Source of the DNA: a phage
Length of the DNA: 64,000 nt
Strand: one strand, 5' to 3'
Sequence record: PZ445427.1
Under the pieces are notes generated by a model. The model worked only from the letters and a program-made list of their open reading frames with translations, was not told where the DNA came from and searched no databases. The position numbers and the translations under genes are program-made. Below are positions 22,550 through 33,851 of this stretch, piece by piece. The first letter of the stretch is position 1. Every line of letters begins with the position of its first letter.

Positions 22550-22564
22550 AATTAAGGAAATAAA

Positions 22565-22686
22565 ATGAAAGCTATTAAGAAAGCACTACGTAAATTTATG
22601 TACTGTCGTTTCCATAGTATTAAGGCTTCAACTAATGGTACGACTTACGATCGCTATGATCCTAAGTTTGGCTTACATTCTAAATA
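22565..22686 (+). CDS. small hypothetical protein (40 aa)
   Basis: AAGGAAA RBS then ATG; below track cutoff. Confidence 0.3.
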
Positions 22687-22700
22687 ACTGGAGATAATAA

Positions 22701-22907
22701 ATGGCTAATCCTGAAATTACTGCACAGCGCTTTATGCTGAAAGGTATTATTGCTGAAGCAGGCATGACAGAAGAAGTTGCAGATTTTCAAAAGCAGTTCC
22801 TAAATATTCTCACTCAAGCCAAAGAGCTAGGAGAGAAAGAACATGGCGCGGCTATTATGGCAATCACATTGGTTGGGCTTGATCTGGCAGAAGAATCAGG
22901 AGTTTAA
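22701..22907 (+). CDS. hypothetical protein (68 aa)
   Basis: GGAGA RBS. Confidence 0.5.
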   Translation: MANPEITAQRFMLKGIIAEAGMTEEVADFQKQFLNILTQAKELGEKEHGAAIMAITLVGLDLAEESGV

Positions 22908-22937
22908 CTCCTCCAAGCAGAAATTTTAAAAATGTAC

Positions 22938-22967
22938 TTGCTTTTTACTTAAGATTTCTGCTATAAT
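22938..22967 (+). promoter_or_regulatory. T5-type early promoter
   Basis: ttgctt 22938..22943, 18-bp spacer, tataat 22962..22967. Confidence 0.55.
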
Positions 22968-22997
22968 AGTTATATAAATTGATGAAGGAGTTAACGA

Positions 22998-23273
22998 ATG
23001 TCAAAACGTGTTACTTCAACTGGTGTTGAAAGTGCTGTTTGTAAATCCTGGGGTGGCTGGGAAGGTGAGATTGAATGGCTTTATTTCTACGATGTAGAAC
23101 TTCTGCCGGAAGTCAAAGCTAAATGTGTGGAAGCTGGTATGGCTCCTGATGCAAAGGCTGATATCGAAATCACCATGACTAAGCTAGAAGGTCGTGTAAT
23201 TACGCTCAATGATGATTATGAAGAAGTGTTCGAGCTTCCATTCAAACTGAGTGTCACTCCTAGCTTCGAGTAA
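22998..23273 (+). CDS. hypothetical protein (91 aa)
   Basis: AAGGAG RBS. Confidence 0.55.
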   Translation: MSKRVTSTGVESAVCKSWGGWEGEIEWLYFYDVELLPEVKAKCVEAGMAPDAKADIEITMTKLEGRVITLNDDYEEVFELPFKLSVTPSFE

Positions 23274-23309
23274 CTGATATAGCACTGAGCAAGTTCTTTA
23301 AAATTTGAC

Positions 23310-23338
23310 TTGCTCAGTCCTTCAAAACTTGATATAAT
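23310..23338 (+). promoter_or_regulatory. T5-type early promoter
   Basis: ttgctc 23310..23315, 17 bp, tataat 23333..23338. Confidence 0.55.
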
Positions 23339-23403
23339 ATTTATCTAATTTGGAAACATATTTAAAAGTGTTTAAATGAGAATTTTTGAATACTTCTAAA
23401 TAT

Positions 23404-23491
23404 GGGCGTTTATTCCGTAAGTGGTAGCGGAGGGGATTGTAAATCCCTGGTCATTGCGACTCGAGTGGTTCGACTCCATTAACGCCCACCA
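23404..23491 (+). tRNA. tRNA-Tyr(GTA)
   Basis: Acceptor gggcgtt/aacgccc, anticodon loop ttgtaaa, long variable arm, T-loop ttcgact, CCA. Confidence 0.75.
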
Positions 23492-23508
23492 AATTAAAGG
23501 TAAAGGAT

Positions 23509-24000
23509 ATGTATATTGATCGGATAATTCAAGAAGCTGCAAATAGGGGTATTATACAGTTGGGTTCACCCGCTGATATAAATAAAGATCTAATATTAGA
23601 AAGCCTCACATTTGGTACAGCTAACTTTGGTCGCGATAGTAATCGTCGATATAGCTTGAAGTTATCTGCACTATCTTTTATCAAGTATAACAAAAGTATT
23701 GGAGAAAAATCCAGCTGTGGTTTTATTTACGCAATAACTAACCCAGCTTGGGATAACTATGTAAAAATTGGTATGTCTTCTGATCCTAAAACAAGATTAA
23801 GAAATTACCAAACCTATTCTCCTTTACGTGATTATAAGTTAATACATTGGTCATTCTGGTTTAATGCTAGAGAAGCGGAGAAAATGCTTCATAATAGCTT
23901 TCCTGAACGGCTTAACGAATGGGTAGTGTTAGACAGAGGTGTAGACGAAATACTTTCCGAGTTTAACAATTTATCCAATAAGCAATTTAAGTCCTGTTAG
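23509..24000 (+). CDS. GIY-YIG nuclease-like protein (T5orf172-type domain)
   Basis: CGFIYAITN ... YVKIGMSSD ... RLRNY arrangement typical of GIY-YIG/T5orf172 domain; sits inside tRNA cluster; stop overlaps tRNA-Glu. Confidence 0.5.
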   Translation: MYIDRIIQEAANRGIIQLGSPADINKDLILESLTFGTANFGRDSNRRYSLKLSALSFIKYNKSIGEKSSCGFIYAITNPAWDNYVKIGMSSDPKTRLRNYQTYSPLRDYKLIHWSFWFNAREAEKMLHNSFPERLNEWVVLDRGVDEILSEFNNLSNKQFKSC

Positions 24001-24067
24001 ACAAACTGGTAAAGTCACTACCCTTTCAAGGTAGGATTTGCGGGTTCGATCCCCGCACAGGACGCCA
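23991..24067 (+). tRNA. tRNA-Glu(TTC)
   Basis: Acceptor gtcctgt/acaggac, anticodon stem ctacc/ggtag loop ctttcaa, T-arm gcggg-ttcgatc-cccgc, CCA. Confidence 0.7.
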
Positions 24068-24075
24068 ATTTCTGC

Positions 24076-24152
24076 ATTCCTAGAGTGTTACTGGACAGCA
24101 TGTCGGTCTCCAAAACCGTACGGTCTAGGTTCGAGTCCTAGTAGGTTTGCCA
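24076..24152 (+). tRNA. tRNA-Trp(CCA), acceptor stem imperfect
   Basis: Anticodon loop ctccaaa, T-arm ctagg-ttcgagt-cctag, CCA; 5' acceptor pairs only 5 of 7. Confidence 0.4.
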
Positions 24153-24158
24153 ATATTT

Positions 24159-24233
24159 GCACCTTTAGCTGAGATGGATTAGCGCTTGCCTGAAGAGCTT
24201 GAGAGGTTCGTTCAATTCGAACAGGGTGCACCA
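24159..24233 (+). tRNA. tRNA-Phe(GAA), weak anticodon stem
   Basis: Acceptor gcacctt/agggtgc, anticodon loop ctgaaga, T-arm gttcg-ttcaatt-cgaac, CCA. Confidence 0.45.
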
Positions 24234-24252
24234 ATTAATCAATATAAGGCTT

Positions 24253-24633
24253 ATGGAAACAAAAACGTGTAATAAGTGTGGAAATACATTTCCCTTGAGT
24301 ACGGACTACTTCTTTAAAAGTGGTAAGCAAGTCTCAGGAAAACAAAAATGGAAACCTATGTGCAAACAATGCGAAAGTATATCTCGTATTGAATACTATA
24401 ATAATACAATTGCCGAGGTTTTTCCTGACTTACATTGTGCTATTTGTGGGTATAACAAGTGTCCACAGGCGATTGATTTCCATCATTTAGAGCAGGATGA
24501 TAAAGAGTTTAATATTAGTGAAGCTAGACGGGGTACGTTTAACAAAGAAAAACTAATAGAAGAGCTTGAGAAATGTGTACCTTTATGCTGTAGGTGTCAC
24601 AGAGAATATCATGCTGGAGTTATTGAGCTTTAA
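24253..24633 (+). CDS. HNH endonuclease-like protein
   Basis: CAICGY...HHL...N...CCRCHREYH HNH/zinc motif; start ATG 24253 (track start 24199 overlaps tRNA). Confidence 0.65.
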   Translation: METKTCNKCGNTFPLSTDYFFKSGKQVSGKQKWKPMCKQCESISRIEYYNNTIAEVFPDLHCAICGYNKCPQAIDFHHLEQDDKEFNISEARRGTFNKEKLIEELEKCVPLCCRCHREYHAGVIEL

Positions 24634-24647
24634 ACTGAAAAATGTAG

Positions 24648-24676
24648 TTGCTTAAATCCTTAAAGTTCTGTATAAT
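24648..24676 (+). promoter_or_regulatory. T5-type early promoter
   Basis: ttgctt 24648..24653, 17 bp, tataat 24671..24676. Confidence 0.6.
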
Positions 24677-24704
24677 TATTATATAAATTGAACTGGAGAA
24701 CTAG

Positions 24705-24893
24705 ATGAAAGCACCTAAACCGAAATTAGTTAAGTTCGACTGCTGTGACACTGAAATCTTATTTACTAAGTTTGGTGAATTTAAGATGTGTGAATGTGGA
24801 ACATGTGGTTATGATCATGGTGATGGATATTATTGCAGAACCCTCGGGCCTTCTGAACTAATCCACTTCTCATGGCCGGAAAGTAAAGAATAA
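24705..24893 (+). CDS. small Cys-rich protein (62 aa)
   Basis: GGAGAA RBS; CCxxC...CxCGxC. Confidence 0.5.
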   Translation: MKAPKPKLVKFDCCDTEILFTKFGEFKMCECGTCGYDHGDGYYCRTLGPSELIHFSWPESKE

Positions 24894-24895
24894 TA

Positions 24896-24971
24896 CGACC
24901 GTTGGCTGAATGGCTTAGGCGGAGGCCTGCAAAACCTCCTTATGTGAGTTCGAATCTCATGCGGTCGTCCA
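24896..24971 (+). tRNA. tRNA-Cys(GCA)
   Basis: Acceptor cgaccgt/gcggtcg, anticodon region ctgcaaa, discriminator U, T-loop ttcgaat, CCA. Confidence 0.6.
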
Positions 24972-24978
24972 AATTTTA

Positions 24979-25061
24979 GGGTCGTTAGCCAAGCGGTTTG
25001 GCGGTGGACTGTTAATCCATGTCGAAAGACAACGTAGGTTCGAATCCTACACGGCCCGCCA
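24979..25061 (+). tRNA. tRNA-Asn(GTT) with unusually long variable arm
   Basis: Acceptor gggtcgt/acggccc, D stem gcca/tggc, anticodon stem gtgga/tccat loop ctgttaa, 13-nt variable arm (gtc-gaaa-gac), T-arm gtagg-ttcgaat-cctac, CCA. Confidence 0.6.
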
Positions 25062-25164
25062 TATTCTGTGTAGAGTTAAGTAAACCGGTAGCCAACCAGC
25101 TATCATTGCTGATATCGAATTCAGTCACAGATACCATTTTTCATTAACAACTGAGGAAATAGAT

Positions 25165-25350
25165 ATGACAACTCGTGCAATTGCTCGACTAGAAGCTGAT
25201 CGTGATAGTCTGATTAATAATATTAAGGTTTGGGATCAAGAAATTGAAAACCAAAAACTGACATTAATTCAAGATATGCAACAACAGAATGCCCGTCGTG
25301 AAGCTCTAAAAGAGGTTGAGGAAGCTATCGAAAAACTCAAAACTGAGTAA
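25165..25350 (+). CDS. hypothetical coiled-coil protein (61 aa)
   Basis: GAGGAAA RBS. Confidence 0.5.
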   Translation: MTTRAIARLEADRDSLINNIKVWDQEIENQKLTLIQDMQQQNARREALKEVEEAIEKLKTE

Positions 25351-25359
25351 ATAAATTAT

Positions 25360-25436
25360 GCGATCGGGGCTGGCTTGGTAATGGTACTCCCCTGTCACGG
25401 GAGAGAATGTGGGTTCGAATCCCATCGGTCGCGCCA
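25360..25436 (+). tRNA. tRNA-Asp(GTC)
   Basis: Acceptor gcgatcg/cggtcgc, anticodon stem ctccc/gggag loop ctgtcac, T-loop ttcgaat, CCA. Confidence 0.75.
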
Positions 25437-25442
25437 AATAAT

Positions 25443-25518
25443 ACATCCATAGCTCAATGGTTAGAGCTACCGCCTCTTAAGCGGAGGGTTCTAGGTTCAA
25501 GTCCTAGTGGGTGTACCA
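25443..25518 (+). tRNA. tRNA-Lys(CTT)
   Basis: Acceptor acatcca/tgggtgt, D stem gctc/gagc, anticodon loop ctcttaa, T-arm ctagg-ttcaagt-cctag, CCA. Confidence 0.65.
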
Positions 25519-25519
25519 A

Positions 25520-25731
25520 ACATCAGAGCAGCGTGATGTACTGCAAAGACCCAAAGTCCGGGGTGGACTTCTTGATTCAAAGGAGCAGGCATTAATTATC
25601 ATTCTAGCGTGGTGGAGAGGGGACACCAGCTTGCCGAGGGTAGAAGCTCGTTCGATTCGAGTGAAAGAATGGTTCTCGTAAATCCGCACAAGTGATAGTA
25701 GGTTCAAGTCCTACCTAGATTGACTCATTAT
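25520..25731 (+). other. unresolved tRNA-like region (two T-arm-like hairpins without canonical acceptor stems)
   Basis: gctcg-ttcgatt-cgagt at 25646..25662 and gtagg-ttcaagt-cctac at 25698..25714; no 7-bp acceptor partner found by eye. Confidence 0.3.
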
Positions 25732-25805
25732 GCGTTCGTAGTTAAAAGGTATAATTTTTGGTTGCCAACCAGAAGTTGAGGGTTCGATTCCCTCCGACCG
25801 CACCA
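25732..25805 (+). tRNA. tRNA-Gly(GCC)
   Basis: Acceptor gcgttcg/cgaccgc (1 mismatch), anticodon stem tttgg/ccaga loop ttgccaa, T-arm gaggg-ttcgatt-ccctc, CCA. Confidence 0.65.
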
Positions 25806-26053
25806 AATTTAGGTTTCTGCTTCCTAGAGAACTGACTCCTAGATAAACAAGGCGATGAGTTTCCGGCCGGTTCTAGTCGCTGAAAATCCTCCCGACCAGG
25901 TAGGTGTAAGTAAACGAAAGTTTACTTATTAAGTAAGTCCGACACATCGGCGGGTGTGTTCTAGTACTTAAAGAAGGTCTCGCAAACTTTCTCGCTAGCA
26001 TGAGTTGATAGCTCGGTGACTTACCTAATAAGTAAATTTATTAAAAAATGTAG

Positions 26054-26082
26054 TTGCTATTTAGCTTAATTCTCTGTATAAT
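26054..26082 (+). promoter_or_regulatory. T5-type early promoter
   Basis: ttgcta 26054..26059, 17 bp, tataat 26077..26082. Confidence 0.6.
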
Positions 26083-26114
26083 ATATTTTATAAAGTGAGT
26101 TAACAAAGAATATT

Positions 26115-26192
26115 CTCCGTGTAGCTCAGTTTGGCCAGAGCGTTTCGTTTGGGGCGATAGGGTCGGGGGTTCAAATCCTCCCACGGAGACCA
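26115..26192 (+). tRNA. tRNA-Pro(TGG)
   Basis: Acceptor ctccgtg/cacggag, anticodon loop tttgggg (G37), variable gggtc, T-loop ttcaaat, CCA. Confidence 0.7.
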
Positions 26193-26198
26193 AACAAT

Positions 26199-26276
26199 TG
26201 CGGGTTAGATCTCTGGTAGAGATCGCTAGTCTCATAAGCTAGAAAGAGGTAGGTTCGATTCCTACACCCGCTTCCA
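26199..26276 (+). tRNA. tRNA-Met/Ile(CAT)
   Basis: Acceptor tgcgggt/acccgct with 1:72 mismatch, anticodon stem ctagt/gctag loop ctcataa, T-arm gtagg-ttcgatt-cctac, CCA. Confidence 0.6.
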
Positions 26277-26297
26277 ATTTAATAGAAGGATTTCGAA

Positions 26298-26462
26298 ATG
26301 AAATTATTTCGTTTAAAAGTAAGTGATCTACGTTCTAGCAAAGATCGTAAGAAGTATCCACTAGCCCATTACGGTAAAGATGAAAATGAAGTGATGGCGG
26401 AATTTGGTATTAATCATCCTTACTTGAAAGTTCACTCTATTAAAGAAGTATACATGTATTAA
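26298..26462 (+). CDS. small hypothetical protein (54 aa)
   Basis: AAGGA RBS; between tRNAs; below track cutoff. Confidence 0.35.
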   Translation: MKLFRLKVSDLRSSKDRKKYPLAHYGKDENEVMAEFGINHPYLKVHSIKEVYMY

Positions 26463-26464
26463 AT

Positions 26465-26542
26465 TGACCGTTAACTCAACTGGATAAGAGTACCGAGCTT
26501 TTACCTCGTAGGTTCTGGGTTCGAATCCCAGACGGTCAACCA
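26465..26542 (+). tRNA. tRNA-Lys(TTT)
   Basis: Acceptor tgaccgt/acggtca, anticodon loop cttttac, T-arm ctggg-ttcgaat-cccag, CCA. Confidence 0.7.
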
Positions 26543-26559
26543 ATTTAAAGGAATTTGTT

Positions 26560-26877
26560 ATGAATATTAACAAAGTTCTAGGAACAATATCAGAAATGTC
26601 TGGTAGAGCTGGAAAACGCTTTACTGAATTATGTATTAAAAATCAAAAAGTACCAGAACATCAATGTCATTATTGTCGAGACTGTGAACAATACCATGAA
26701 ATGTGTGTGGTTGAAGATTGGGTCTGGGATCAGATAAGAAAAGAACAATCCAAAGATATTGTTCTATGTTTTACTTGTATGGAACGACGTTTAGGACGTA
26801 AAATTACTCTTAAAGATCTTAAACATGTTCCCTGTAACGCTCCTTACTTCATTGGTTTTAGAATGGAGAGATTTTGA
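26560..26877 (+). CDS. Cys-rich zinc-ribbon-like protein (105 aa)
   Basis: AAAGGAA RBS; CHYCRDC and CFTC motifs. Confidence 0.55.
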   Translation: MNINKVLGTISEMSGRAGKRFTELCIKNQKVPEHQCHYCRDCEQYHEMCVVEDWVWDQIRKEQSKDIVLCFTCMERRLGRKITLKDLKHVPCNAPYFIGFRMERF

Positions 26878-27010
26878 TGATAATCTGGTTTTACTTAATG
26901 AAACAAAAAGTCAAGCAGTACAACGTATTTTCTGCTGATTTTACTATTGGAATGTTCTTAGCGGGATTATGTGAGTTTCTGTTTGAAGCCTACATCATAG
27001 GAAGTCTTTT

Positions 27011-27084
27011 GCTCGGTTAGTTTAATGGGAGAACCCCGTCTTTACACGGCGGTTGCGATAGTTCGATTCTATCACCGAGTACCA
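27011..27084 (+). tRNA. tRNA-Val(TAC)
   Basis: Acceptor gctcggt/accgagt, anticodon stem ccgtc/ggcgg loop tttacac, T-arm gatag-ttcgatt-ctatc, CCA. Confidence 0.7.
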
Positions 27085-27103
27085 ATTAACTCAAAATAAG
27101 GAA

Positions 27104-27463
27104 TTGCAAATGCAATTATCAAGCAAGGTTCAAGGCTATTTCGGGCATGTAACAATGGAGTTCGCTATCTCTAAAGGTTGGGACTTCGAACAAGATCTAG
27201 CTGAATTCTACAAAGATATTGATCTGAATGTACCGTACATAGGACTCTCTACTGGTCAAGAGATCACAGAAGGCGATGTGTTCAAGGCAAGTCAAGGTGA
27301 GGTAACACCTAGTTTTGCCGAGTTCTGGTTAGGTATTACTTTGAAAGAAGATGCACCGGATGGTGGTGTGGTTATGCAGAGTATGCACTCTGGAAGCTCT
27401 GACTACCTTTTCGTTAGTGACGTTAAGGAAATACAAGAAATCTGCAAAAATGTACTTGCTTGA
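27104..27463 (+). CDS. hypothetical protein (119 aa)
   Basis: AAGGAA RBS. Confidence 0.55.
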   Translation: MQMQLSSKVQGYFGHVTMEFAISKGWDFEQDLAEFYKDIDLNVPYIGLSTGQEITEGDVFKASQGEVTPSFAEFWLGITLKEDAPDGGVVMQSMHSGSSDYLFVSDVKEIQEICKNVLA

Positions 27464-27484
27464 TGCTTAATTTCTTGTTATAAT
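27456..27484 (+). promoter_or_regulatory. T5-type early promoter
   Basis: ttgctt 27456..27461, 17 bp, tataat 27479..27484. Confidence 0.6.
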
Positions 27485-27727
27485 ATTTATATAAATTGAT
27501 GGGGAGAAATCCTCATCAAAGTTCACTAAGGTATTAGCTCGACCTAGGACTGGCTGCCAAAAAGCACGATCCCTACGACTTGGGAGAAGTTCTAGATTAG
27601 TCCACTAGATTCAGTGGCAACTGAATAGTGTATCGGGTTTGTGAAGAGCGGTTATCCTCTACTGGCTAATGTCTGAGGGTAATACGCACACCGAGCTAAT
27701 AGCCTTAGTAAACTAGAAGGAATATCT

Positions 27728-27991
27728 ATGTTTGATCTTAAAGATATGGCTAAGAAACTAATGTCGCAACGTTATCAACAAAGAACCCTCCATAAACGAG
27801 TTTCCGATATGAAGAAACGTTGCAATAATGCTAAGTATTATAATAGTCTTAATAAACTATCTGATGTAGATCTTGCTAAAACTGAAGCAATATATAATCA
27901 CTTAGTAGTAGAATCTGATATAGTGAATAAAGATATTGCTAGGCTAGAAGCTCAGATTGTAGCAACTGTTCTCGATATGTATAGAGAATAA
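27728..27991 (+). CDS. hypothetical protein (87 aa)
   Basis: AGAAGGAA RBS; preceded by about 240-nt ORF-free leader. Confidence 0.5.
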   Translation: MFDLKDMAKKLMSQRYQQRTLHKRVSDMKKRCNNAKYYNSLNKLSDVDLAKTEAIYNHLVVESDIVNKDIARLEAQIVATVLDMYRE

Positions 27992-28000
27992 ATAAATTTT

Positions 28001-28079
28001 GGGGAATGGGTCTGCATGGAGTGGACACCTCGCTTGCACCGAGGACATCAGAACGGTTCGATTCCGTTATTCTCCACCA
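28001..28079 (+). tRNA. tRNA-Ala(TGC)
   Basis: Acceptor ggggaat/attctcc with G3-U70, anticodon stem cctcg/cgagg loop cttgcac, T-arm aacgg-ttcgatt-ccgtt, CCA. Confidence 0.65.
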
Positions 28080-28085
28080 AAATTC

Positions 28086-28161
28086 GGGGTCATAGGTTAT
28101 TTGGTTAAACTTACTGCCTTGCAAGCAGTGGAACTCAGTTCAATTCTGAGTGACTCCACCA
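28086..28161 (+). tRNA. tRNA-Ala(TGC) second copy (divergent sequence)
   Basis: Acceptor ggggtca/tgactcc with G3-U70, anticodon stem actgc/gcagt loop cttgcaa, T-arm ctcag-ttcaatt-ctgag, CCA. Confidence 0.6.
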
Positions 28162-28180
28162 AACAAATTAAGGAAATAAT

Positions 28181-28399
28181 ATGGTATTCTTAGCAGCCTC
28201 TGTAGTTCTTGCAGCTTTAGCACTAGCTATCTATTTTAGAACTATTAAAGATTTAGCTAAAGAAAAGAAAACTTTCTTTACTGATTATTCTTGGGGCGCT
28301 CCATATACCGTCCGCTTTATCAGCTTAGAAGCTATGCTGATAATGGTATTCAGTGGTATAGGTTCCGTTGTTACAGGGTTACTATTTATTTCTAACTAA
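28181..28399 (+). CDS. small membrane protein (72 aa)
   Basis: AAGGAAA RBS; two hydrophobic segments. Confidence 0.5.
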   Translation: MVFLAASVVLAALALAIYFRTIKDLAKEKKTFFTDYSWGAPYTVRFISLEAMLIMVFSGIGSVVTGLLFISN

Positions 28400-28406
28400 A
28401 TAAAAT

Positions 28407-28487
28407 GGGGATGTGGCGAAATTGGCAGACGCGCTAGATTTAGGCTCTAGTCTTCGGGTGTGGGTTCGAGTCCCTCCATCCCTACCA
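28407..28487 (+). tRNA. tRNA-Leu(TAG)
   Basis: Acceptor ggggatg/catccct, anticodon stem ctaga/tctag loop tttaggc, long variable arm, T-loop ttcgagt, CCA. Confidence 0.7.
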
Positions 28488-28661
28488 AACATTGGATTAA
28501 CTCATGATGAAAACTCCTATAACTGATATCTGGTTAGCTGTTAATACATTAACTAAAGAGTATGTGTTTATAGAGTATGGTCAGAGGTATGACCAAAAGA
28601 TGTATAATCTCATACTTCCAGTATCCGCTAATGAAGTTTATGATTTAATCCTGAGATCTAC

Positions 28662-28752
28662 GGAAGAGCAAATCGATTAGGTGACGAAAACCGCTTGGAA
28701 AGTGGCTGACTGGTAAAACGGCTTGAGAGTTCGAATCTCTCTTCTTCCGCCA
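28662..28752 (+). tRNA. tRNA-Ser(GGA)
   Basis: Acceptor ggaagag/ttcttcc, anticodon loop ttggaaa, long variable arm, T-arm gagag-ttcgaat-ctctc, CCA; 91 nt. Confidence 0.55.
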
Positions 28753-28774
28753 AACAACTTACTAGGAAACTAAT

Positions 28775-29131
28775 ATGTCAGAAGTGACAATCTATAATGA
28801 AATGCTTGGCAAAATTTTTACTAGTGTATGCCAAGACCAAGATACTCTTATCTTCATTTGTACTGATGGTAAGAACTATAAGTTTTATCATGAGCAGGAC
28901 TGCTGTGAAGATGTTCATATAGATGATATTATTGGTGATTTACATGACCTTTTAGGTTATCCAATCATAGAAGCAGAGGAAGTAATCACACACGCTACAG
29001 AAGATTGGGATTCAGTAACCCATACATGGTATAAGTTTGCCACAGCTAAAGGCTGTGTAACCGTTAAATGGCATGGTTCTAGTAATGGTTATTACTCTGA
29101 ATCTGTAAACTTTGTAATATACGAACAATAG
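28775..29131 (+). CDS. hypothetical protein (118 aa)
   Basis: AGGAAA RBS. Confidence 0.55.
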   Translation: MSEVTIYNEMLGKIFTSVCQDQDTLIFICTDGKNYKFYHEQDCCEDVHIDDIIGDLHDLLGYPIIEAEEVITHATEDWDSVTHTWYKFATAKGCVTVKWHGSSNGYYSESVNFVIYEQ

Positions 29132-29219
29132 AAGATAGGACGTAGTGGTACGTAACCGGTCTTGAAAACCGGCCCGCTGTAGTGATATGGTGATGGTTCG
29201 ACTCCATTATCTTCTGCCA
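29130..29219 (+). tRNA. tRNA-Ser(TGA)
   Basis: Acceptor agaagat/atcttct perfect, anticodon stem ccggt/accgg loop cttgaaa, long variable arm, T-loop ttcgact, CCA. Confidence 0.75.
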
Positions 29220-29356
29220 AATCTTGAAGTATGCCGGAATCGGTAGACGGGGCTTCCTAAAGGGCGTAAGGGGAACATCCACTCCTCATAAGATACCCGA
29301 AAACGAGGCTGAGATAAATGGTCTATCTCGTGAAGGTTCAAGTCCTTCTGCTTCTT
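29220..29356 (+). other. unresolved tRNA-like structured region
   Basis: Hairpin gagata-aatggtc-tatctc followed by T-arm-like gaagg-ttcaagt-ccttc; no canonical acceptor stem found. Confidence 0.3.
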
Positions 29357-29577
29357 GATATTCAATGGCTCAAAGAGTAACGGTGCACCTTTCTAGAGAA
29401 TTTCCTGGGCGAGAATCCAGGTGTAATCAACTAGTTGTTAGTGTGATGAGTTTCGGAGAGCCGCCACAATTGAAAATTCGTACTCGTCTTGAGCTTCGTG
29501 CAATAGAAGATAACTTGATTAGTATTCTAGAAAATGCTATTTGAGGATGGTTTCGCTAACCCTGCGAGTTTTCAATT

Positions 29578-29654
29578 GTGGCTATATCATAATTGGTTAA
29601 TGATCCTGATTGTGAATCAGGCCTATGTGGATTCGAGTTCCACTAGCCACCCCA
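29578..29654 (+). tRNA. tRNA-His(GTG)
   Basis: Acceptor gtggcta/tagccac, anticodon stem cctga/tcagg loop ttgtgaa, T-arm gtgga-ttcgagt-tccac, CCA. Confidence 0.75.
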
Positions 29655-29660
29655 AATATT

Positions 29661-29735
29661 GCGTCCTTATTTCAACGGAAAGAATGTAAAGCTACGAACT
29701 TTACGATCGGGGTTCGATTCCCTGAGGATGCACCA
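29661..29735 (+). tRNA. tRNA-Arg(ACG)
   Basis: Acceptor gcgtcct/aggatgc, anticodon stem taaag/cttta loop ctacgaa, T-arm cgggg-ttcgatt-ccctg, CCA. Confidence 0.7.
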
Positions 29736-29759
29736 ATTAACTTAAACAGGAAAATAATA

Positions 29760-29960
29760 ATGGCTGATTTCTGTAAAGAATGCTCTATCGATATGTGGGG
29801 CAAAGATACACAAGATCTTTCTGGTCTTATCACTGAAGCCGAGGTTAAAGAGGGCTACGGTGCTGTAGTAATCTGCGAAGGTTGTGGTATTATCCGTGTT
29901 GATCATGAAGGCAAACGCCTTGAAGAACCTGAGCCAATCGCAACGGTTCCTGTAGAGTAA
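29760..29960 (+). CDS. small zinc-ribbon-like protein (66 aa)
   Basis: ATG 29760 after AGGAAAA; CxxC...CxxC; track ORF 29625.. overlaps tRNAs and is rejected as start. Confidence 0.5.
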   Translation: MADFCKECSIDMWGKDTQDLSGLITEAEVKEGYGAVVICEGCGIIRVDHEGKRLEEPEPIATVPVE

Positions 29961-29968
29961 AGAATTAT

Positions 29969-30044
29969 TGGGATGTAGATCAATTGGCAGATCGTCGGCC
30001 TCTGACTCCGAAGGTTCCACGTTCGATCCGTGGCATCCCAGCCA
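29969..30044 (+). tRNA. tRNA-Gln(CTG)
   Basis: U1-A72 acceptor tgggatg/catccca, anticodon loop ctctgac, T-arm ccacg-ttcgatc-cgtgg, 3' end CCCAGCCA. Confidence 0.7.
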
Positions 30045-30050
30045 AACAAT

Positions 30051-30126
30051 TGGAGAGTAGTGTAACGGTTAGCACAACGGCCTTTGACTCCGTTAATGGT
30101 AGGTTCGATTCCTCCTTCTCCAGCCA
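30051..30126 (+). tRNA. tRNA-Gln(TTG)
   Basis: U1-A72 acceptor tggagag/ttctcca, anticodon loop ctttgac, T-loop ttcgatt, CCA. Confidence 0.65.
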
Positions 30127-30132
30127 ATTTAT

Positions 30133-30207
30133 GCGTGATTAGTTCAGTGGCTAGAATAACTGGCTTCCAACCAGTAGACACGAGTTCGACTCTCGTATCC
30201 CGCACCA
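30133..30207 (+). tRNA. tRNA-Gly(TCC)
   Basis: Acceptor gcgtgat/atcccgc (1 mismatch), anticodon stem actgg/ccagt loop cttccaa, T-arm acgag-ttcgact-ctcgt, CCA. Confidence 0.7.
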
Positions 30208-30223
30208 AATATAAGGAAACGTT

Positions 30224-30466
30224 ATGGACGTTTTTGAGTTTCGTAATAAAAGCCCCAATAGGCGCGTTTTGATTATTGGTGAAACATATCGAGCTTATGA
30301 GCAAGAAGATGGTTCGGTTTTACTAAACGATGAAAAGCAAGGTTATAGCTTTTATCCAGAAGAAACGTATGAAGAATTTCGTACCAAGTTTCTCTTACCA
30401 GACTGGCTAGCAGTAGCCGAGCAACGAGAATCCGAAGATGGCAGAAAACCTAAAATTAAAGGTTGA
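30224..30466 (+). CDS. hypothetical protein (80 aa)
   Basis: AAGGAAA RBS. Confidence 0.55.
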   Translation: MDVFEFRNKSPNRRVLIIGETYRAYEQEDGSVLLNDEKQGYSFYPEETYEEFRTKFLLPDWLAVAEQRESEDGRKPKIKG

Positions 30467-30612
30467 CAAACAAAAGAAATACGTTGAGGTTGAATTAGGC
30501 GAAGAACGCTTAAAGCTATCCTTCGAGTTTCTTCAGCAGTTGGCGATGACAGTAATGTCTGATAAGTCTCCTGTATTTGAGAAAGAAATCCCGTTGAAAT
30601 GACGGGTTTATT

Positions 30613-30687
30613 GCTCCTAAAGCATTGCTGGCGATGCAGTTGCCTTGTAAGCATCTGAACCGGGTTCGATTCCTGGTGGGAGCACCA
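30613..30687 (+). tRNA. tRNA-Thr(TGT)
   Basis: Acceptor gctccta/tgggagc, D stem gcat/atgc, anticodon loop cttgtaa, T-arm ccggg-ttcgatt-cctgg, CCA. Confidence 0.7.
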
Positions 30688-30702
30688 AATTTAAAAATTC
30701 AT

Positions 30703-30731
30703 TTGCCTTCTCTCTTATTTCTTGTTATAAT
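30703..30731 (+). promoter_or_regulatory. T5-type early promoter
   Basis: ttgcct 30703..30708, 17 bp, tataat 30726..30731. Confidence 0.55.
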
Positions 30732-30761
30732 ATTTATATAAATTAATGAGAGGGAAACCAA

Positions 30762-31055
30762 ATGAAACGTTATCTTTCTGTCGTATTCCAAACGGGTGGT
30801 CAACGCTACACTTACGAATTTCCTGAGTCTTGGAAAATCAAAGAGGGTGATCAAGTTGTTGTGTTAACACCTCGTGAAGGCTTCAAAGTAGTAACGGTTA
30901 AACAAGTATTTCCAAAAGATCACGAACCATCTAAGTCTCTTAACTATAAGATGATTCATGGTCTGGTACGAAAAGTACCTAGAACAGAAGTCGAAGTAGA
31001 TAAAACTGGAGAAGCTAAATACCAGTATACCTCTTACTTAGACGAAATGATGTAA
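30762..31055 (+). CDS. hypothetical protein (97 aa)
   Basis: GAGAGGGAAA RBS. Confidence 0.55.
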   Translation: MKRYLSVVFQTGGQRYTYEFPESWKIKEGDQVVVLTPREGFKVVTVKQVFPKDHEPSKSLNYKMIHGLVRKVPRTEVEVDKTGEAKYQYTSYLDEMM

Positions 31056-31056
31056 T

Positions 31057-31132
31057 GCTCCGATAGTTCAAACGGTTAGAACAGGCGACCGATAATCGTC
31101 AAATCTTGGTTCGATCCCAAGTCGGAGTACCA
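31057..31132 (+). tRNA. tRNA-Ile(GAT)
   Basis: Acceptor gctccga/tcggagt, anticodon stem ggcga/tcgtc loop ccgataa, T-arm cttgg-ttcgatc-ccaag, CCA. Confidence 0.6.
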
Positions 31133-31138
31133 AATTAT

Positions 31139-31211
31139 AGTTAGTTGGCAGAGTGGTTATGCACCTCCTTCATACGGAGTGACTACAGTGGTTCAAATCC
31201 ACTACTAACTA
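31139..31211 (+). tRNA. tRNA-Met/Ile(CAT), CCA not encoded
   Basis: Acceptor agttagt/actaact perfect, anticodon loop ttcatac, T-arm agtgg-ttcaaat-ccact. Confidence 0.6.
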
Positions 31212-31583
31212 CTAAACAGAGGATCAGGTCATTGTACCAGATCCTGCTGAGAAGAGAGTCCACATTCTATAAATGGCCGGGCGTGACAGCAGGAAGTAGA
31301 CTGCAACTCCATGCTATCCAGGAGTATAAATGTAGAAGCTAGGACTTTAGATAGCCATTGTCTTAGCGTGAGCAATCACGTAGTTGCAACAGACCTGGAA
31401 GATCGCAACGTTAAAATCAAAGTTCCAGTGCTTATTTATCTAATCGAGACCATCAATCTCACCGGAATGCTAGCACCCCAACAGTAGCTAGTGATTAGAT
31501 AATAAGCAAGCCTGCCTTCCAGTTTTTATCTTGCTTCTGGGTTAACAAAAAGCTGAGCCAAATTCTAACATCAGGGAGATCTA

Positions 31584-31952
31584 ATGAAAGCATATCAAAG
31601 TCTTAAGTCTGGCGTAATTAACATTGTTCATAACAATCAGATCATTCAACTATATTCTAAAGATGGTGAACTTAAACAGAAAGTTCTAGTCGAAGATCTA
31701 GAAGGTATCACACCTCACTTTGACCCTGAGGCCTTTCGCATTGTAGATGTGGAAGTGGTTCCTCAAGTCGAGGGTGGTCAGCACCTAAATGTCAATGTGT
31801 TAAGCCGTGATCAGCTTTTGGATGCACAGAAACATCCTGAAAAATATCCTCAGTTGACCATCCGTGTCTCTGGCTATGCTGTTCGATTTAACGCATTGAC
31901 GCGTGAACAACAGAACGACGTTATTAGTCGTACATTTACTCAGGCGATATAA
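31584..31952 (+). CDS. grcA: autonomous glycyl radical cofactor (GrcA/YfiD-like)
   Basis: 122 aa; [11 protein letters not shown] and [32 protein letters not shown] closely match the GrcA / pyruvate formate-lyase C-terminal glycyl-radical domain. Confidence 0.8.
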
Positions 31953-32033
31953 TGGGGTTTGGATACGATTTCTCCCAGCTACGCAAGGTAGTCGAGCAAA
32001 CTCCATTTATCTCCCAAGTTTTAGGAGAAATGT

Positions 32034-32333
32034 GTGGATCGAGCATTAAGACGCCATCACCGGCAACGTGTGAAAAACAACCGAAAGAAGTATTGGACAG
32101 TATTCCCTCATGAAGAAAGTCCTAAGCGGTTAGGCATTATTACTACCACGCCTTGCATCTGTTCTTGTTGGATGTGTGGGAATCCTCGCAAATACTATAA
32201 GAATAGTAAAGCAGGTATGAAAATCTCGGAGATTAAAAAGATGGATGCAATGATTATGGGCACCACCTTTACAGGTGGTATCTCTGATGAATTCGACGGT
32301 TTTGTAACTCAAGATATTGTTGAAATTATCTAA
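32034..32333 (+). CDS. hypothetical protein (start uncertain)
   Basis: Track ORF; overlaps an alternative 53-aa ORF at 31952..32113; no clear RBS. Confidence 0.3.
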   Translation: MDRALRRHHRQRVKNNRKKYWTVFPHEESPKRLGIITTTPCICSCWMCGNPRKYYKNSKAGMKISEIKKMDAMIMGTTFTGGISDEFDGFVTQDIVEII

Positions 32334-32342
32334 TTAATAATA

Positions 32343-32378
32343 AACCCCAGCTATTGAATAAGTAGTCTGGGGTTTTCT
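32343..32378 (+). terminator. rho-independent terminator
   Basis: aaccccag ... ctggggtt hairpin then TTTCTT. Confidence 0.6.
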
Positions 32379-32397
32379 TGTATGTAGGATTTTCGAA

Positions 32398-32583
32398 ATG
32401 AAAATTTTTAAAGTGAACTATAGAGGCCTGTGGTTAGGTGGTACAGCTATTGTTGTTGCGGAAACTGCGGAAGAAGCAATCGAACTGGCTAGAAACCATA
32501 GAAGTTCTATAGAGTTCGAAGATGCGAGGGTAGAAGAACTCCCAAGCAGTGGGGTAGTATACAACGACAACGGAGATTACTAA
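32398..32583 (+). CDS. hypothetical protein (61 aa)
   Basis: Track ORF, weak RBS. Confidence 0.4.
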   Translation: MKIFKVNYRGLWLGGTAIVVAETAEEAIELARNHRSSIEFEDARVEELPSSGVVYNDNGDY

Positions 32584-32641
32584 TGTTATATTTTGAAGTT
32601 CGTCCACATTAAGTTAATTCAAAAGACTTAATGGAGGTAAT

Positions 32642-32989
32642 ATGAGCCGTACTTATCGTAAACAATCTGGTGATCAGTGGTGGAAATCAAAAGCTAAGTA
32701 TACTCAGGAGTACACTCTCCTCAAAGGTAGTGGCTACTGGATTCGAGTTACTTACGCTAAATCCTGGGATGAAGTAGAGCAGGAAATGAAGGAAGCAACT
32801 ATCCGCAACGAGAAAAAGGATGGTTACAACTGGGATTCTGTTAGCAAGAATGTTAAGTGGCATTCTAACAAAATGGTTCGTCAAGGGAATCGTCAAGAAC
32901 TCCACCGTGTAATGAGAGATCCAGAAAATTACGACTATAATCGCGACCATGACATGCGTAAGCGTGGTTTATGGTGGTGCTACGACTAA
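32642..32989 (+). CDS. hypothetical protein (115 aa)
   Basis: GGAGG RBS. Confidence 0.55.
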   Translation: MSRTYRKQSGDQWWKSKAKYTQEYTLLKGSGYWIRVTYAKSWDEVEQEMKEATIRNEKKDGYNWDSVSKNVKWHSNKMVRQGNRQELHRVMRDPENYDYNRDHDMRKRGLWWCYD

Positions 32990-32995
32990 GGAAAT

Positions 32996-33493
32996 ATGGA
33001 AACCTGGAAAGACATAACAGGTTTTGAGGGTAAATACCAGATATCTAATAAGGGGAATGTCTCTAGTTATTTATCTGGTAAAATTCTCAAACCCCAAGTA
33101 AATAGACAAGGGTATCTTGTCATCAACCTATATTATGAAGTAGGTAAAGCTAGAAAATTTAGGATACACAGACTTGTAGCTGAGCACTTTATACCTAATC
33201 CAGATAATAAACCCTTCGTTAATCATCTGGATGGTGATAAGTCAAATAATGACGAGGATAACCTAGAATGGAGCACCTCGGAAGAGAATAATAGACATGC
33301 CCGTGAAAATGGTTTAGCTAATTGGGCGAAAGGGGAACAGCATGGTAGGTGTAAACTATCTGATGCAGATATCTTTTGGATAAGAAGTCATTATCAGCCA
33401 AGAAACCGAGAATTTGGTCAAGCTGCTTTAGCTAGGATGTTCGGTGTAAGTCAACCTCACATATCGTATATAATTAACGGGCATAAAAGGTAA
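32996..33493 (+). CDS. HNH homing endonuclease (NUMOD4 + HNH)
   Basis: GFEGKYQISNKGNV NUMOD4 motif and HRLVAEHFIPNP...NHLDGDKSNN...NLEW HNH motif; C-terminal HTH-like tail. Confidence 0.85.
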   Translation: METWKDITGFEGKYQISNKGNVSSYLSGKILKPQVNRQGYLVINLYYEVGKARKFRIHRLVAEHFIPNPDNKPFVNHLDGDKSNNDEDNLEWSTSEENNRHARENGLANWAKGEQHGRCKLSDADIFWIRSHYQPRNREFGQAALARMFGVSQPHISYIINGHKR

Positions 33494-33509
33494 AAATGAA
33501 ATAATTCAT

Positions 33510-33538
33510 TTGCTAAAGAACCTCTTTATTGATATAAT
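33510..33538 (+). promoter_or_regulatory. T5-type early promoter
   Basis: ttgcta 33510..33515, 17 bp, tataat 33533..33538. Confidence 0.6.
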
Positions 33539-33569
33539 ATTTATATAAATTGATAGAGAGGGCTTTGAA

Positions 33570-33851
33570 ATGAAAACTCGCCTAGACTGTGCTGTTCATG
33601 TACTTGAGCATGATATTGTTGGGACTTGTATGTCTTATCATGAAGCAGGTAAAATGATTGTTAAACGTGTTGCTGATGTTTGTAGTTTGAAAATCACCGA
33701 AGATGAAGCAGACGAACTGCTTGGACAGGCAATAGAGAAAACAGAAATTTTCTTGTGCGATTCTTGTTCTTGGTGGTGTGAAGCTCACGAACATTCTTTC
33801 AATGATTATGATGTATGCCGTGACTGTAAAGAGGACGATGAAGATGAATAA
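33570..33851 (+). CDS. Cys-rich acidic protein (93 aa)
   Basis: AGAGAGGG RBS. Confidence 0.55.
   Translation: MKTRLDCAVHVLEHDIVGTCMSYHEAGKMIVKRVADVCSLKITEDEADELLGQAIEKTEIFLCDSCSWWCEAHEHSFNDYDVCRDCKEDDEDE

Follow-up and report, generated by a model that had tools for sequence, protein, structure and literature searches.

The tRNA gene cluster of bacteriophage T5 encodes the HNH homing endonucleases F-TflI/II/IV, dated to 2004 in the account cited here (PMC2330249, citing PMID 15456135), and T5-like genomes differ from one another chiefly in their homing endonuclease genes (PMC10644984). T5-like phages are also rich in T5orf172 homing endonuclease genes (Barth et al. 2023, PMC10448857). In ICP1 and other phages, genes of this family are variably present and lie at the edges of recombined segments; in the survey of T5orf172 genes, 87% carried CapR, DUF723 or DUF4397 zinc-finger DNA-binding domains, and the genes lay near essential ones (PMC10448857).

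Two further systems are relevant. SegB of T4 and T6 is a GIY-YIG-superfamily nuclease encoded among tRNA genes; its ORF ends at the point where the next tRNA starts, and tRNA processing is thought to limit expression. Through SegB the tRNA region is inherited preferentially, and the T6 gene shows linkage to tRNA-Tyr (PMC2330249, PMC13096335). I-HmuI of Bacillus phage SPO1 (174 aa) combines a NUMOD4 N-terminal region with an HNH_3 core, and its gene is carried by a group I intron that interrupts the DNA polymerase gene.

The present study characterised three nuclease ORFs (ORF1, ORF2 and ORF3) in a window comprising the whole 64,000-nucleotide stretch of DNA analysed (PZ445427.1), which belongs to a T5-like Salmonella/E. 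coli phage (Demerecviridae, Epseptimavirus-like). The T5 F-Tfl and other tRNA-region nuclease ORFs share with ORF1-3 the early tRNA cluster setting, the phage family, the free-standing organisation and the tRNA strand, and, as ORF1 does, run into the following tRNA gene. Sequence identity is limited to 40% between ORF1 and T5 ORF065, and 28-33% between ORF3 and two T5 HNH ORFs, with no ORF2 homologue in the T5 region examined; the T5 genes are non-orthologous and occupy other insertion sites, the T5 Tyr|Glu and post-Phe sites being empty. ORF1 resembles SegB by description, in its location among tRNA genes and its overlap with the next one, but is assigned by Pfam to T5orf172/MUG113; five T5-like taxon or phage names did not occur in the supplementary files examined from the SegB survey. 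With the surveyed T5orf172 genes ORF1 shares the Pfam family, variable presence and position at the edges of recombined segments, whereas its cysteine-free helical N-terminal region and its position between tRNA genes set it apart from most of them (PMC10448857). ORF3 has the same N-terminal region and core as I-HmuI in 165 aa, but it is intergenic, and the C-terminal DNA-binding part of I-HmuI is not alignable with the weak helix-turn-helix of ORF3.

Results

Organisation of the locus

The features of the locus, with the evidence for each, are as follows:

23295..23352, + strand: early-promoter repeat copy upstream of tRNA-Tyr (repeat family D4/D5)
23404..23491, + strand: tRNA-Tyr(GTA), allele 'W' (ARAGORN, alignments, per-tRNA identities)
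23499..23983, + strand: present/absent segment of ~485-492 bp at the Tyr|Glu junction (comparison with empty sites)
23509..24000, + strand: ORF1, T5orf172-type GIY-YIG endonuclease, 163 aa (Pfam, PHROG, invariant residues, AF2, Foldseek)
23991..24233, + strand: tRNA-Glu, tRNA-Trp and tRNA-Phe, co-transcribed, between ORF1 and ORF2 (ARAGORN)
24253..24633, + strand: ORF2, HNH endonuclease with an N-terminal CxxC...CxxC zinc ribbon, 126 aa from ATG (PHROG, invariant residues, AF2, Foldseek)
24638..24712, + strand: early-promoter repeat copy, TTGCTT-17-TATAAT (sequence, repeat family D3-D5)
32642..32989, + strand: DUF7295 gene immediately upstream of ORF3 (Pfam DUF7295, 5.6e-56)
32990..33498, + strand: 509-bp insertion relative to Stitch and AZ23, whose empty site is 6 bp (alignment, BLAST map)
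32996..33493, + strand: ORF3, I-HmuI-like NUMOD4 + HNH_3 endonuclease, 165 aa (Pfam, PHROG, PDB 1U3E)
33500..33574, + strand: early-promoter repeat copy, TTGCTA-17-TATAAT at 33510-33538 (promoter scan, repeat family)

The window contains 29 tRNA genes, the last of the cluster ending at 31212, and ORF1-3 lie in its early tRNA region, which is non-essential. ARAGORN placed tRNA-Glu at 23991-24067 and tRNA-Phe at 24159-24233. The repeat upstream of tRNA-Tyr is the positional homologue of T5 promoter P19 (22686-23361 aligns to T5 7312-7987, with T5P19 annotated at 7921-7990) and begins the transcription unit containing ORF1 and ORF2. The second repeat starts 5 nt past the ORF2 stop and is homologous to T5 promoter P18 (aligned to T5 8693-8770, T5P18 being annotated at 8688-8757), while the third begins 6 nt beyond the ORF3 stop codon.

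Identity of the nuclease genes

ORF1 matched only two Pfam families, T5orf172 (PF10544; E 4.8e-9, 37.1 bits, cutoff 20) and MUG113 (PF13455; 36.2 bits, cutoff 22.3), and not the classical GIY-YIG family; its PHROG match was phrog_5032 (4.9e-52). Residues G71, Y74, K86, G88, R96 and E137 of the catalytic motif are invariant among 15-17 homologues, down to 30% identity, and the nuclease core spans approximately residues 70-140. The AF2 model (pLDDT 87.6) has the predicted GIY-YIG alpha/beta fold: Foldseek returned Slx1 GIY-YIG chains with probability 0.75-0.99, but weak E-values (0.15-1.4), at an rmsd of 3.4-4.7 A across 66-86 columns, and HIGLE and UPF0213 also matched. The stop codon TAG (23998-24000) corresponds to U8-A9-G10 of tRNA-Glu, 10 nt into the tRNA gene. 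This arrangement is not specific to endonuclease genes, as at 12 of the cluster's 13 ORF-to-tRNA junctions the two features overlap or are separated by no more than 10 nt.

ORF2, starting 19 nt past tRNA-Phe, gave no Pfam match at an E-value of 1 or below and no sequence match in PDB, while it matched the 'HNH endonuclease' families phrog_2255, 3106 and 35854 (E from 1.7e-30, for phrog_2255, to 6e-15). The motif CxxC...HH...CxxCH..H is invariant among 10 homologues (C62, C65, H77, H78, C112, C115, H116, H120). The top Foldseek matches of the AF2 model (pLDDT 87.2) were all HNH nucleases, namely Hpy99I (probability 0.96), Cap5, Gme HNH and VcaM4I, although these matches were weak (E of at least 0.014, TM 0.28-0.35).

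In ORF3, a NUMOD4 domain (PF07463; 2.4e-16, 60.1 bits, residues 2-46) precedes an HNH_3 domain (PF13392; 5.7e-10, 39.1 bits, residues 57-100) and, by Pfam, the weak C-terminal helix-turn-helix. The ORF matched phrog_59 (1.2e-55) and, over residues 3-129, I-HmuI (PDB 1U3E; E 7.9e-25). Its 'VNHLDGDKSNN...EEN' aligns with 'VDHKDGNKDNN...KIN' of I-HmuI, with the catalytic His and metal-binding Asn aligned; the residue preceding the catalytic His is Asn in ORF3 (VNH) and Asp in I-HmuI (VDH).

A preliminary description of the window had placed a T5orf172-type GIY-YIG gene overlapping tRNA-Glu, an HNH gene adjoining tRNA-Phe and a NUMOD4-HNH gene at these positions, and had named domain searches as the test of its proposal. 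All three ORFs are there, on the + strand, and profiles and conserved residues bear out each assignment, as does the fold for ORF1, with weak structural matches to HNH nucleases for ORF2. That all three genes flank tRNAs is correct for ORF1 and ORF2; ORF3 begins 1.78 kb downstream of the last tRNA, outside the cluster.

Distribution and insertion sites

Among the 631 phage records matching the region, which formed the comparison set and represent one genus-level group, ORF1 occurs in 40, ORF2 in 2 (one phage) and ORF3 in 13. Presence is sporadic at fixed sites among close relatives, as would be expected of mobile endonuclease genes in the comparison that the preliminary description had proposed, with intact and precise empty sites for ORF1 and ORF3. 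No record is on more than one of the three carrier lists, and none has near-identical copies of two of the genes.

The empty site of ORF1 is Tyr-AATTTAA-Glu, a 7-nt spacer found in Stitch, JNwz02, T5 and 12 IMG/VR loci; because AATT(T)AA occurs on both sides, the ends of the inserted segment can be placed only to within a few nt. Across 23300-24199, which includes ORF1 and tRNA-Tyr, Glu, Trp and Phe, identity to S114 is 98-100%, and it falls to 78-86% in the bounding sequence. S124 carries a diverged homologue at the same site (orf86, 43% identity).

ORF2 takes the place of a T5 ORF067/Stitch71-like small gene downstream of tRNA-Phe, and is a cassette replacement rather than a simple insertion. 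Together with its flanks (24065-24881) it shares 96% identity with S124, against 83-91% in the adjoining sequence of that phage, and Rutana has a diverged HNH homologue (89% identity) at the same site, 3' of tRNA-Phe.

The ORF3 insertion falls precisely at the junction of the DUF7295 stop codon (TAA) with the promoter that follows, so that ORF3 appears free-standing in an intergenic spacer rather than within a group I intron. The gene is 99.4-99.8% identical in carriers with a surrounding region of ~95-96% identity, and 31500-33599 is ~100% identical to JNwz02. In Stitch, which is without ORF3, divergence is raised on either side of the site. The DUF7295 gene is strongly diverged from non-carriers (84-91% to Stitch, or unalignable, against 96-100% further out), and this region is a candidate co-conversion tract or target-site region.

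Each nuclease gene thus lies in a block 96-100% identical among carriers with more divergent flanks, a pattern suggestive of co-conversion of flanking DNA. It is no more than suggestive, since mosaicism extends over the whole region, also away from the nuclease genes (S114 shows patches of low identity at 25200, 25500 and 25900-26000), and identity boundaries are therefore not unique to these genes. Other tRNA junctions harbour paralogues, namely T5 ORF065 (Cys|Asn), S114 orf93 (before Lys-ttt), an SLAM_phiST45 HNH gene (before Ala) and a Kpn9-P3 gene (Tyr|Asn). The region can also be deleted: a 7.4-kb stretch is missing from AZ21 and AZ23, where one deletion endpoint falls within ORF1 and leaves only nt 1-186 of it, so presence/absence could partly reflect deletions. 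The truncated and rearranged copies also include 160-aa variants.

Discussion

On this evidence, ORF1, ORF2 and ORF3 are very probably three independent free-standing homing endonuclease (selfish nuclease) genes. We infer their cleavage activity, target sites, homing and expression control as follows. During co-infection by two related phages, each enzyme would cut or nick the gene-less allele near the insertion point, and recombinational repair from the carrier genome would copy the nuclease gene and some flanking DNA, including, for ORF1 and ORF2, the adjacent tRNA alleles. Because each gene sits in a gap between functional units, insertion would be non-polar: ORF1 occupies a tRNA|tRNA spacer 4-5 nt past a CCA end, with its own ribosome-binding site and a TAG borrowed from tRNA-Glu. 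ORF2 and ORF3 each follow the last gene of a transcription unit and precede an early promoter. ORF1 and ORF2 share their transcription unit with tRNAs. Cutting of the transcript by RNase P at the start of tRNA-Glu would strip ORF1 of its stop codon and so probably keep expression low, an idea already put forward for the segB gene of T4 and the F-Tfl genes of T5.

An unlikely alternative is that ORF1, and perhaps ORF2, acts like SegB, cutting in the tRNA cluster to promote the spread, swap or amplification of tRNA alleles, chiefly tRNA-Tyr; the nuclease would then be maintained because it aids escape from tRNA-cleaving immunity. Both retron-Eco7 PtuAB and Septu target tRNA-Tyr; Septu inhibits mainly Demerecviridae and is escaped when SegB amplifies tRNA-Tyr (PMC13096335), and their own tRNA-Tyr lets T5-like phages evade retron-Eco7 (PMC13096335; PMC10644984). 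In agreement with such a role, ORF1 and its homologues in Klebsiella phage Kpn9-P3 (53% identity) and S124 (43%) all lie directly 3' of tRNA-Tyr. No other tRNA of the cluster differs as much between close relatives as tRNA-Tyr, which has at least five alleles: allele 'W' is 64-65% identical to those of Stitch and JNwz02, phages otherwise 96% identical, whereas 22 of 28 tRNAs are at least 97% identical to both relatives. All 40 ORF1 carriers have allele 'W', and the TyrW-ORF1-Glu1 haplotype of the window unites flanks found separately in other records. However, the same allele, present in 119 records, occurs without ORF1 in ~79 of them, more than 90% of relatives, T5 included, lack ORF1, and several further tRNAs also have divergent alleles. 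The window contains neither a duplicated or amplified tRNA-Tyr nor repeats joining tRNA-Tyr to the 3' end of ORF1, and by Pfam ORF1 belongs to T5orf172/MUG113 and not to the classical GIY-YIG family, its likeness to SegB being one of description.

Slightly less probable still is that ORF1-3 are inactive relics of past invasions, tolerated while no longer cutting, with patchiness arising from random loss by deletion. Homing endonuclease genes are expected, under the general model, to decay once fixed, and the dispensability of the region, the AZ21/AZ23 deletion and the truncated and rearranged copies would fit such decay. Against it, ORF1-3 are full length relative to their homologues and retain all catalytic and zinc-binding residues, clean insertion sites and functional-looking ribosome-binding sites; gene identity among carriers is 96-100%, exceeding that of the surrounding sequence for ORF1 and ORF3.

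That the three genes encode housekeeping nickases, making T5-type virion DNA interruptions or serving replication or packaging, is highly improbable and close to refuted by distribution: T5-like virion DNA does contain specific nicks (PMC10644984) and I-HmuI, a homologue of ORF3, nicks DNA in a strand-specific manner, but nicks are general to T5-like phages, each gene is missing from most of their genomes, T5 included, and all three lie in a dispensable early region. The earlier suggestion that these genes nick DNA is accordingly plausible for ORF3 only, by homology to I-HmuI, while the patchy distribution of ORF1-3 argues against a role in the canonical T5 genome nicks.

Read as homing endonuclease genes, ORF1-3 are real but ordinary features, already documented in T5-like phages, and these exact genes have already been deposited. 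Support for their proposed role in driving tRNA-cluster plasticity is only circumstantial, coming from mosaic blocks that include tRNA alleles and from the AZ21/AZ23 deletion endpoint in ORF1. One lead is worth pursuing: the recurrent occurrence of the ORF1 family just 3' of the hypervariable tRNA-Tyr.

Nuclease genes of the tRNA region

The early tRNA region is a classical feature of T5-like phages, and here it comprises 29 tRNA genes, all on the plus strand, within 16287-31212 (ARAGORN). A 12.5-kb stretch around three nuclease genes was matched by 631 phage records, the best being JNwz02, ZBSTP12, S116 and Stitch (Salmonella/Escherichia phages, Demerecviridae, genus Epseptimavirus) at ~95-96% identity, with coverage of at most 87% in every matching record. 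The preliminary description had reported three homing-endonuclease-like genes in this region, and all three exist as described:

23509-24000, plus strand: ORF1, T5orf172/GIY-YIG nuclease gene, 163 aa (Pfam T5orf172 and MUG113 above curated cutoffs; phrog_5032)
24253 (ATG) to 24633, plus strand: ORF2, zinc-ribbon HNH nuclease gene, 126 aa (three PHROG 'HNH endonuclease' families, best 1.7e-30)
32996-33493, plus strand: ORF3, I-HmuI-like NUMOD4-HNH nuclease gene, 165 aa (NUMOD4 and HNH_3, weak C-terminal helix-turn-helix)

Support for the GIY-YIG and HNH folds, on which that description had made its claim depend, was retained in the domain check, and the three products are credible nucleases with intact active sites. 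Residues G71, Y74, K86, G88, R96 and E137 of ORF1 are kept in homologues down to 30% identity, and residues ~70-140 of its AlphaFold model (pLDDT 87.6) superpose on the GIY-YIG core of Slx1 (Foldseek probability 0.75-0.99, rmsd 3.4-4.7 A), with HIGLE and UPF0213 matching too. The Pfam search of ORF2 returned no family match; C62/C65, H77/H78, C112/C115/H116 and H120 are kept across its homologues, and the top of the Foldseek list for its model (pLDDT 87.2) held only beta-beta-alpha-metal nucleases at modest E-values, namely Hpy99I (probability 0.96), followed by Cap5, the Gme HNH nickase and VcaM4I. By sequence similarity, ORF3 is clearly homologous to I-HmuI, a homing endonuclease that nicks DNA (PDB 1U3E; E 7.9e-25). 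When nine T5/S124/S114 nuclease ORFs were used as tblastn queries, ORF1 and ORF3 were the only endonuclease genes recovered in the window, besides one short tRNA-derived match (25381-25440), and none of the ORFs at 13-22 kb and 34-44 kb was an obvious endonuclease.

Distribution among related phages

The three genes are distributed sporadically and independently. Among the 631 matching records, megablast located ORF1 in 40 (95-100% identity), ORF2 in two, both of phage S124 (96%), and ORF3 in 13 (99.4-99.8%). These carrier lists share no record, so the genes assort independently, and this genome alone among the records seen holds all three. GenBank copies are annotated as 'Intron-associated endonuclease 1-like' (ORF1, S114, 100% identical), 'HNH endonuclease' (ORF2, S124, 96%) and 'HNH endonuclease IV' (ORF3, JNwz02, 99.8%); two of the three genes carry the label 'hypothetical protein' in many deposited relatives. 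Very probably, ORF1, ORF2 and ORF3 are three independent free-standing homing endonuclease genes, whose products would presumably cleave specific targets and promote homing. Separately, among the records carrying ORF3, the T5-like MG065642.1 ('Campylobacter phage A148') is 95.5% identical to the window, and its stated host looks doubtful.

Insertion sites

The empty ORF1 site, found in Stitch, JNwz02, T5 and 12 IMG/VR contigs, consists of tRNA-Tyr, a 6-7-nt spacer A(A)TTTAA and tRNA-Glu; the gene-less Stitch junction reads CACCAAATTTAAGTCC. In the window the distance from tRNA-Tyr to tRNA-Glu is 499 nt. The left junction of the insertion is CCA-AATTA followed by AAGGTAAAGGATATG, and the right junction is the original spacer and tRNA-Glu, so that the last five codons and the stop of ORF1 are encoded by pre-existing spacer/tRNA sequence. 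A scan of IMG/VR for tRNA-Glu yielded only 15 loci, fragmentary and all with the empty site. Over 23300-24199, which spans tRNA-Tyr, ORF1 and tRNA-Glu, Trp and Phe, identity to S114 is 98-100%, against 78-86% in the sequence adjoining on the left. A SegB-like repeat or amplification structure was not found around ORF1. A BLAST alignment with the 3' end of the Stitch-type tRNA-Tyr reaches 23973; the apparent remnant of this tRNA at the 3' end of ORF1 was attributed to chance, as only 8 of the 15 positions past the shared spacer match. In AZ21 and AZ23 a 7.4-kb deletion extends from inside ORF1 (window 23694) to the spacer between tRNA-Ile and tRNA-Met (window 31128). It starts at nt 186 of ORF1, leaving a truncated 63-aa ORF1, and the AZ23 breakpoint (2686/2691 in its comparison locus, L023) has ~4 nt of microhomology (CAAA).

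At the ORF2 site one cassette has taken the place of another, and no simple insertion is seen. ORF2 starts 19 nt 3' of tRNA-Phe, with an AAGG ribosome-binding site ahead, and occupies the interval between tRNA-Phe and an early promoter that is homologous to T5 P18; in Stitch, JNwz02, S114, chee24 and T5 this interval holds a 90-aa ORF similar to T5 ORF067, and a second small ORF, 3' of this promoter, is also absent from the window. Identity to S124 is 96% over 24065-24881 and 83-91% in the neighbouring S124 sequence, and phage rutana encodes an 89%-identical protein at the equivalent place. Elsewhere in the cluster, a 281-bp segment missing from Stitch (window 27715-27995) encodes an 87-aa ORF (27728-27991) just 5' of the first tRNA-Ala; the corresponding position in SLAM_phiST45, NBSal005 and others holds an unannotated HNH gene, ~52% identical to ORF2, which abuts tRNA-Ala.

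ORF3 had been described as tRNA-flanking, a placement which does not hold, since it lies 1.78 kb past the last tRNA. It belongs to a clean 509-bp insertion (32990-33498), to which 6 bp correspond in Stitch and AZ23; the inserted DNA sits precisely in the gap from the TAA ending a DUF7295 gene to the following promoter's -35 box. Compared with the carrier JNwz02, identity is ~100% over 31500-33599. Compared with the non-carrier Stitch, identity is 84-91% over the 330 bp 5' of the site, where parts cannot be aligned, and 93-94% over the 200 bp 3' of it, with 96-100% further out; co-conversion tracts or target-site divergence would give such a pattern. The adjoining DUF7295 gene (32642-32989) is itself extremely diverged between phages in its 5' half, with indels of 12-30 nt, and conserved in its 3' 140 bp. 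Further upstream, the product of 31584-31952 is 122 aa long and has a glycine-radical domain at its C-terminus (Pfam Gly_radical, 4e-18); it looks like a glycyl-radical spare-part protein of the stand-alone kind, and relatives' annotations name it either pyruvate formate-lyase or ribonucleotide reductase subunit.

Transcription units and tRNA-overlapping stop codons

A ~60-nt early-promoter repeat (AAAAAT..TTGCTT-17-TATAAT-ATTTATATAAATTG) occurs seven times in the region, its copies corresponding to annotated T5 early promoters:

21692, 23300, 24638, 26044, 27446, 30693 and 33500: early-promoter repeat copies, each ~45-75 nt

The promoters by ORF1 and ORF2 were located through homology to annotated T5 promoters and through this repeat family; a sigma-70 scan missed the T5-type early promoters adjoining the two genes because their -35 box is TTGCTT. 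ORF2 and ORF3 end 0-6 nt ahead of a repeat copy and ORF1 lies in a tRNA/tRNA spacer, which places all three genes at boundaries of functional units, where insertion would be non-polar. One transcription unit, from a P19-like to a P18-like promoter, contains ORF1, ORF2 and tRNA-Tyr, Glu, Trp and Phe. The repeats could also act as recombination substrates within the tRNA cluster.

The TAG stop of ORF1 (23998-24000) lies 10 nt inside tRNA-Glu. A stop inside a tRNA was considered as a hallmark of endonuclease genes and rejected, since at 12 of the window's 13 ORF-to-tRNA junctions the two genes overlap or lie at most 10 nt apart; the 10-nt overlap itself recurs between a 48-aa ORF and tRNA-Val. 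Most tRNAs of the cluster have U8-A9-G10, read as TAG, which ends any ORF that runs into a tRNA in this frame after 10 nt. Overlaps of the same length join S114 orf93 (T5orf172) to tRNA-Lys, the ORF1 homologue of a Klebsiella phage to tRNA-Asn, and an S124 HNH gene to tRNA-Asp. This stop serves nuclease genes from two superfamilies as well as one or more unrelated small ORFs.

Stop overlaps at U8-A9-G10
Window: 23991-24000; 27011-27020
Comparison locus L027: 920-929
Comparison locus L026: 1677-1686
Phage S124 (L004): 4765-4774

The tRNA features of the T5 record AY587007 are shifted by 68 nt relative to ARAGORN positions, which creates spurious ORF/tRNA overlaps; T5 tRNA coordinates were re-derived with ARAGORN, and after this correction the T5 nuclease ORFs run into the next tRNA as well. 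At the T4 segB junction, tRNA processing has been proposed to restrict nuclease expression, and a personal communication extends this proposal to the F-Tfl genes of T5 (PMC2330249). By analogy, we infer that tRNA processing may limit expression of the ORF1 nuclease.

The ORF1 family and tRNA-Tyr

Members of the family were located in four lineages.

ORF1-family lineages and the tRNA junctions they occupy
Window type: Tyr/Glu
S124 orf86 (43% identity): Tyr/Glu
Klebsiella phage Kpn9-P3 type (52-53% identity): Tyr/Asn
T5/chee24 ORF065 (40% identity): Cys/Asn

In all four the gene starts 4-5 nt past a CCA end, a ribosome-binding site coming after CCA-A(A)TTA, and in three of them tRNA-Tyr lies directly 5'. 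Both ARAGORN and the existing annotation give the S124 tRNA adjoining the ORF1 homologue (L004 2112-2204, 93 nt) as tRNA-Arg(GCG). It is a tRNA-Tyr of the rutana type whose D-arm carries a 12-nt GGCGAC tandem expansion, and it probably represents a damaged tRNA-Tyr.

Against the 96%-identical relatives Stitch and JNwz02, tRNA-Tyr of the window is 64-65% identical, 22 of the 28 tRNAs being at least 97% identical to both; on these alignments no other tRNA differs nearly as much between near-identical phages. T5-like phages have five or more tRNA-Tyr alleles.

Copies of tRNA-Tyr
Window: 23404-23491
Comparison locus L002: 2965-3055
T5 (L020, AY587007.1 24957-43436): 8089-8176
Comparison locus L024: 860-940
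Comparison locus L026: 1108-1194

Divergent alleles are also found for tRNA-Lys-ttt (78%), Ala1, Asn, Pro and Phe, most of which adjoin nuclease-gene sites of other phages.

The window tRNA-Tyr allele is present in all 40 ORF1 carriers. Exclusive linkage was rejected, as ~79 further records have this allele with an empty site. In chee24 and S126 the allele stands beside another tRNA-Glu allele. Occurring elsewhere without ORF1 and with a different Glu partner, it makes the window haplotype look recombinant, with ORF1 at the junction, in keeping with a published account in which the borders of genetic exchange between phages are marked by nuclease genes (PMC10448857). The earlier suggestion that nuclease genes shape tRNA-cluster plasticity gains circumstantial support from these sequence comparisons, though the tRNA region is mosaic away from the ORF1 site too, and divergent alleles are found for several other tRNAs.

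Relation to known systems

It is established that the tRNA region is the most variable part of T5-like genomes through free-standing homing endonuclease genes. The free-standing HNH endonucleases F-TflI, -II and -IV were described in the T5 tRNA cluster in 2004 (PMID 15456135, as cited in PMC2330249 and PMC10644984), differences between T5-like genomes are reported to stem mainly from homing endonuclease genes (PMC10644984), and an abundance of T5orf172 homing endonuclease genes has been reported for T5-like phages (PMC10448857). In T4, SegB is a GIY-YIG homing endonuclease within the tRNA cluster (PMC2330249); its homologues are broadly associated with tRNAs, and T6 SegB amplifies tRNA-Tyr, leading to escape from Septu (PMC13096335). 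Given these precedents and the GenBank copies of all three genes, the present finding is correct and already known in kind. Its main value lies in annotation, as all three genes can be named with confidence.

That members of the ORF1 family recurrently lie next to a hypervariable tRNA-Tyr is a lead worth following, because PtuAB-type defences restricting Demerecviridae cleave tRNA-Tyr. In a far-reaching reading, which we consider improbable, the phrog_5032 lineage would be specialised for tRNA/tRNA spacers and would preferentially target the tRNA-Tyr locus, where cleavage and the gene conversion that follows would create and spread the unusually varied alleles of tRNA-Tyr in T5-like phages; it would then be a T5-family counterpart of SegB, shaping escape from tRNA-Tyr-cleaving defences (retron-Eco7 PtuAB, Septu). 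Five T5-like taxon or phage names were sought in the accessible part of the supplementary files of the SegB survey, and none was present there. If the ORF1 nuclease does mobilise tRNA-Tyr alleles, selfish-gene homing would be tied to counter-defence in a second, unrelated phage family.
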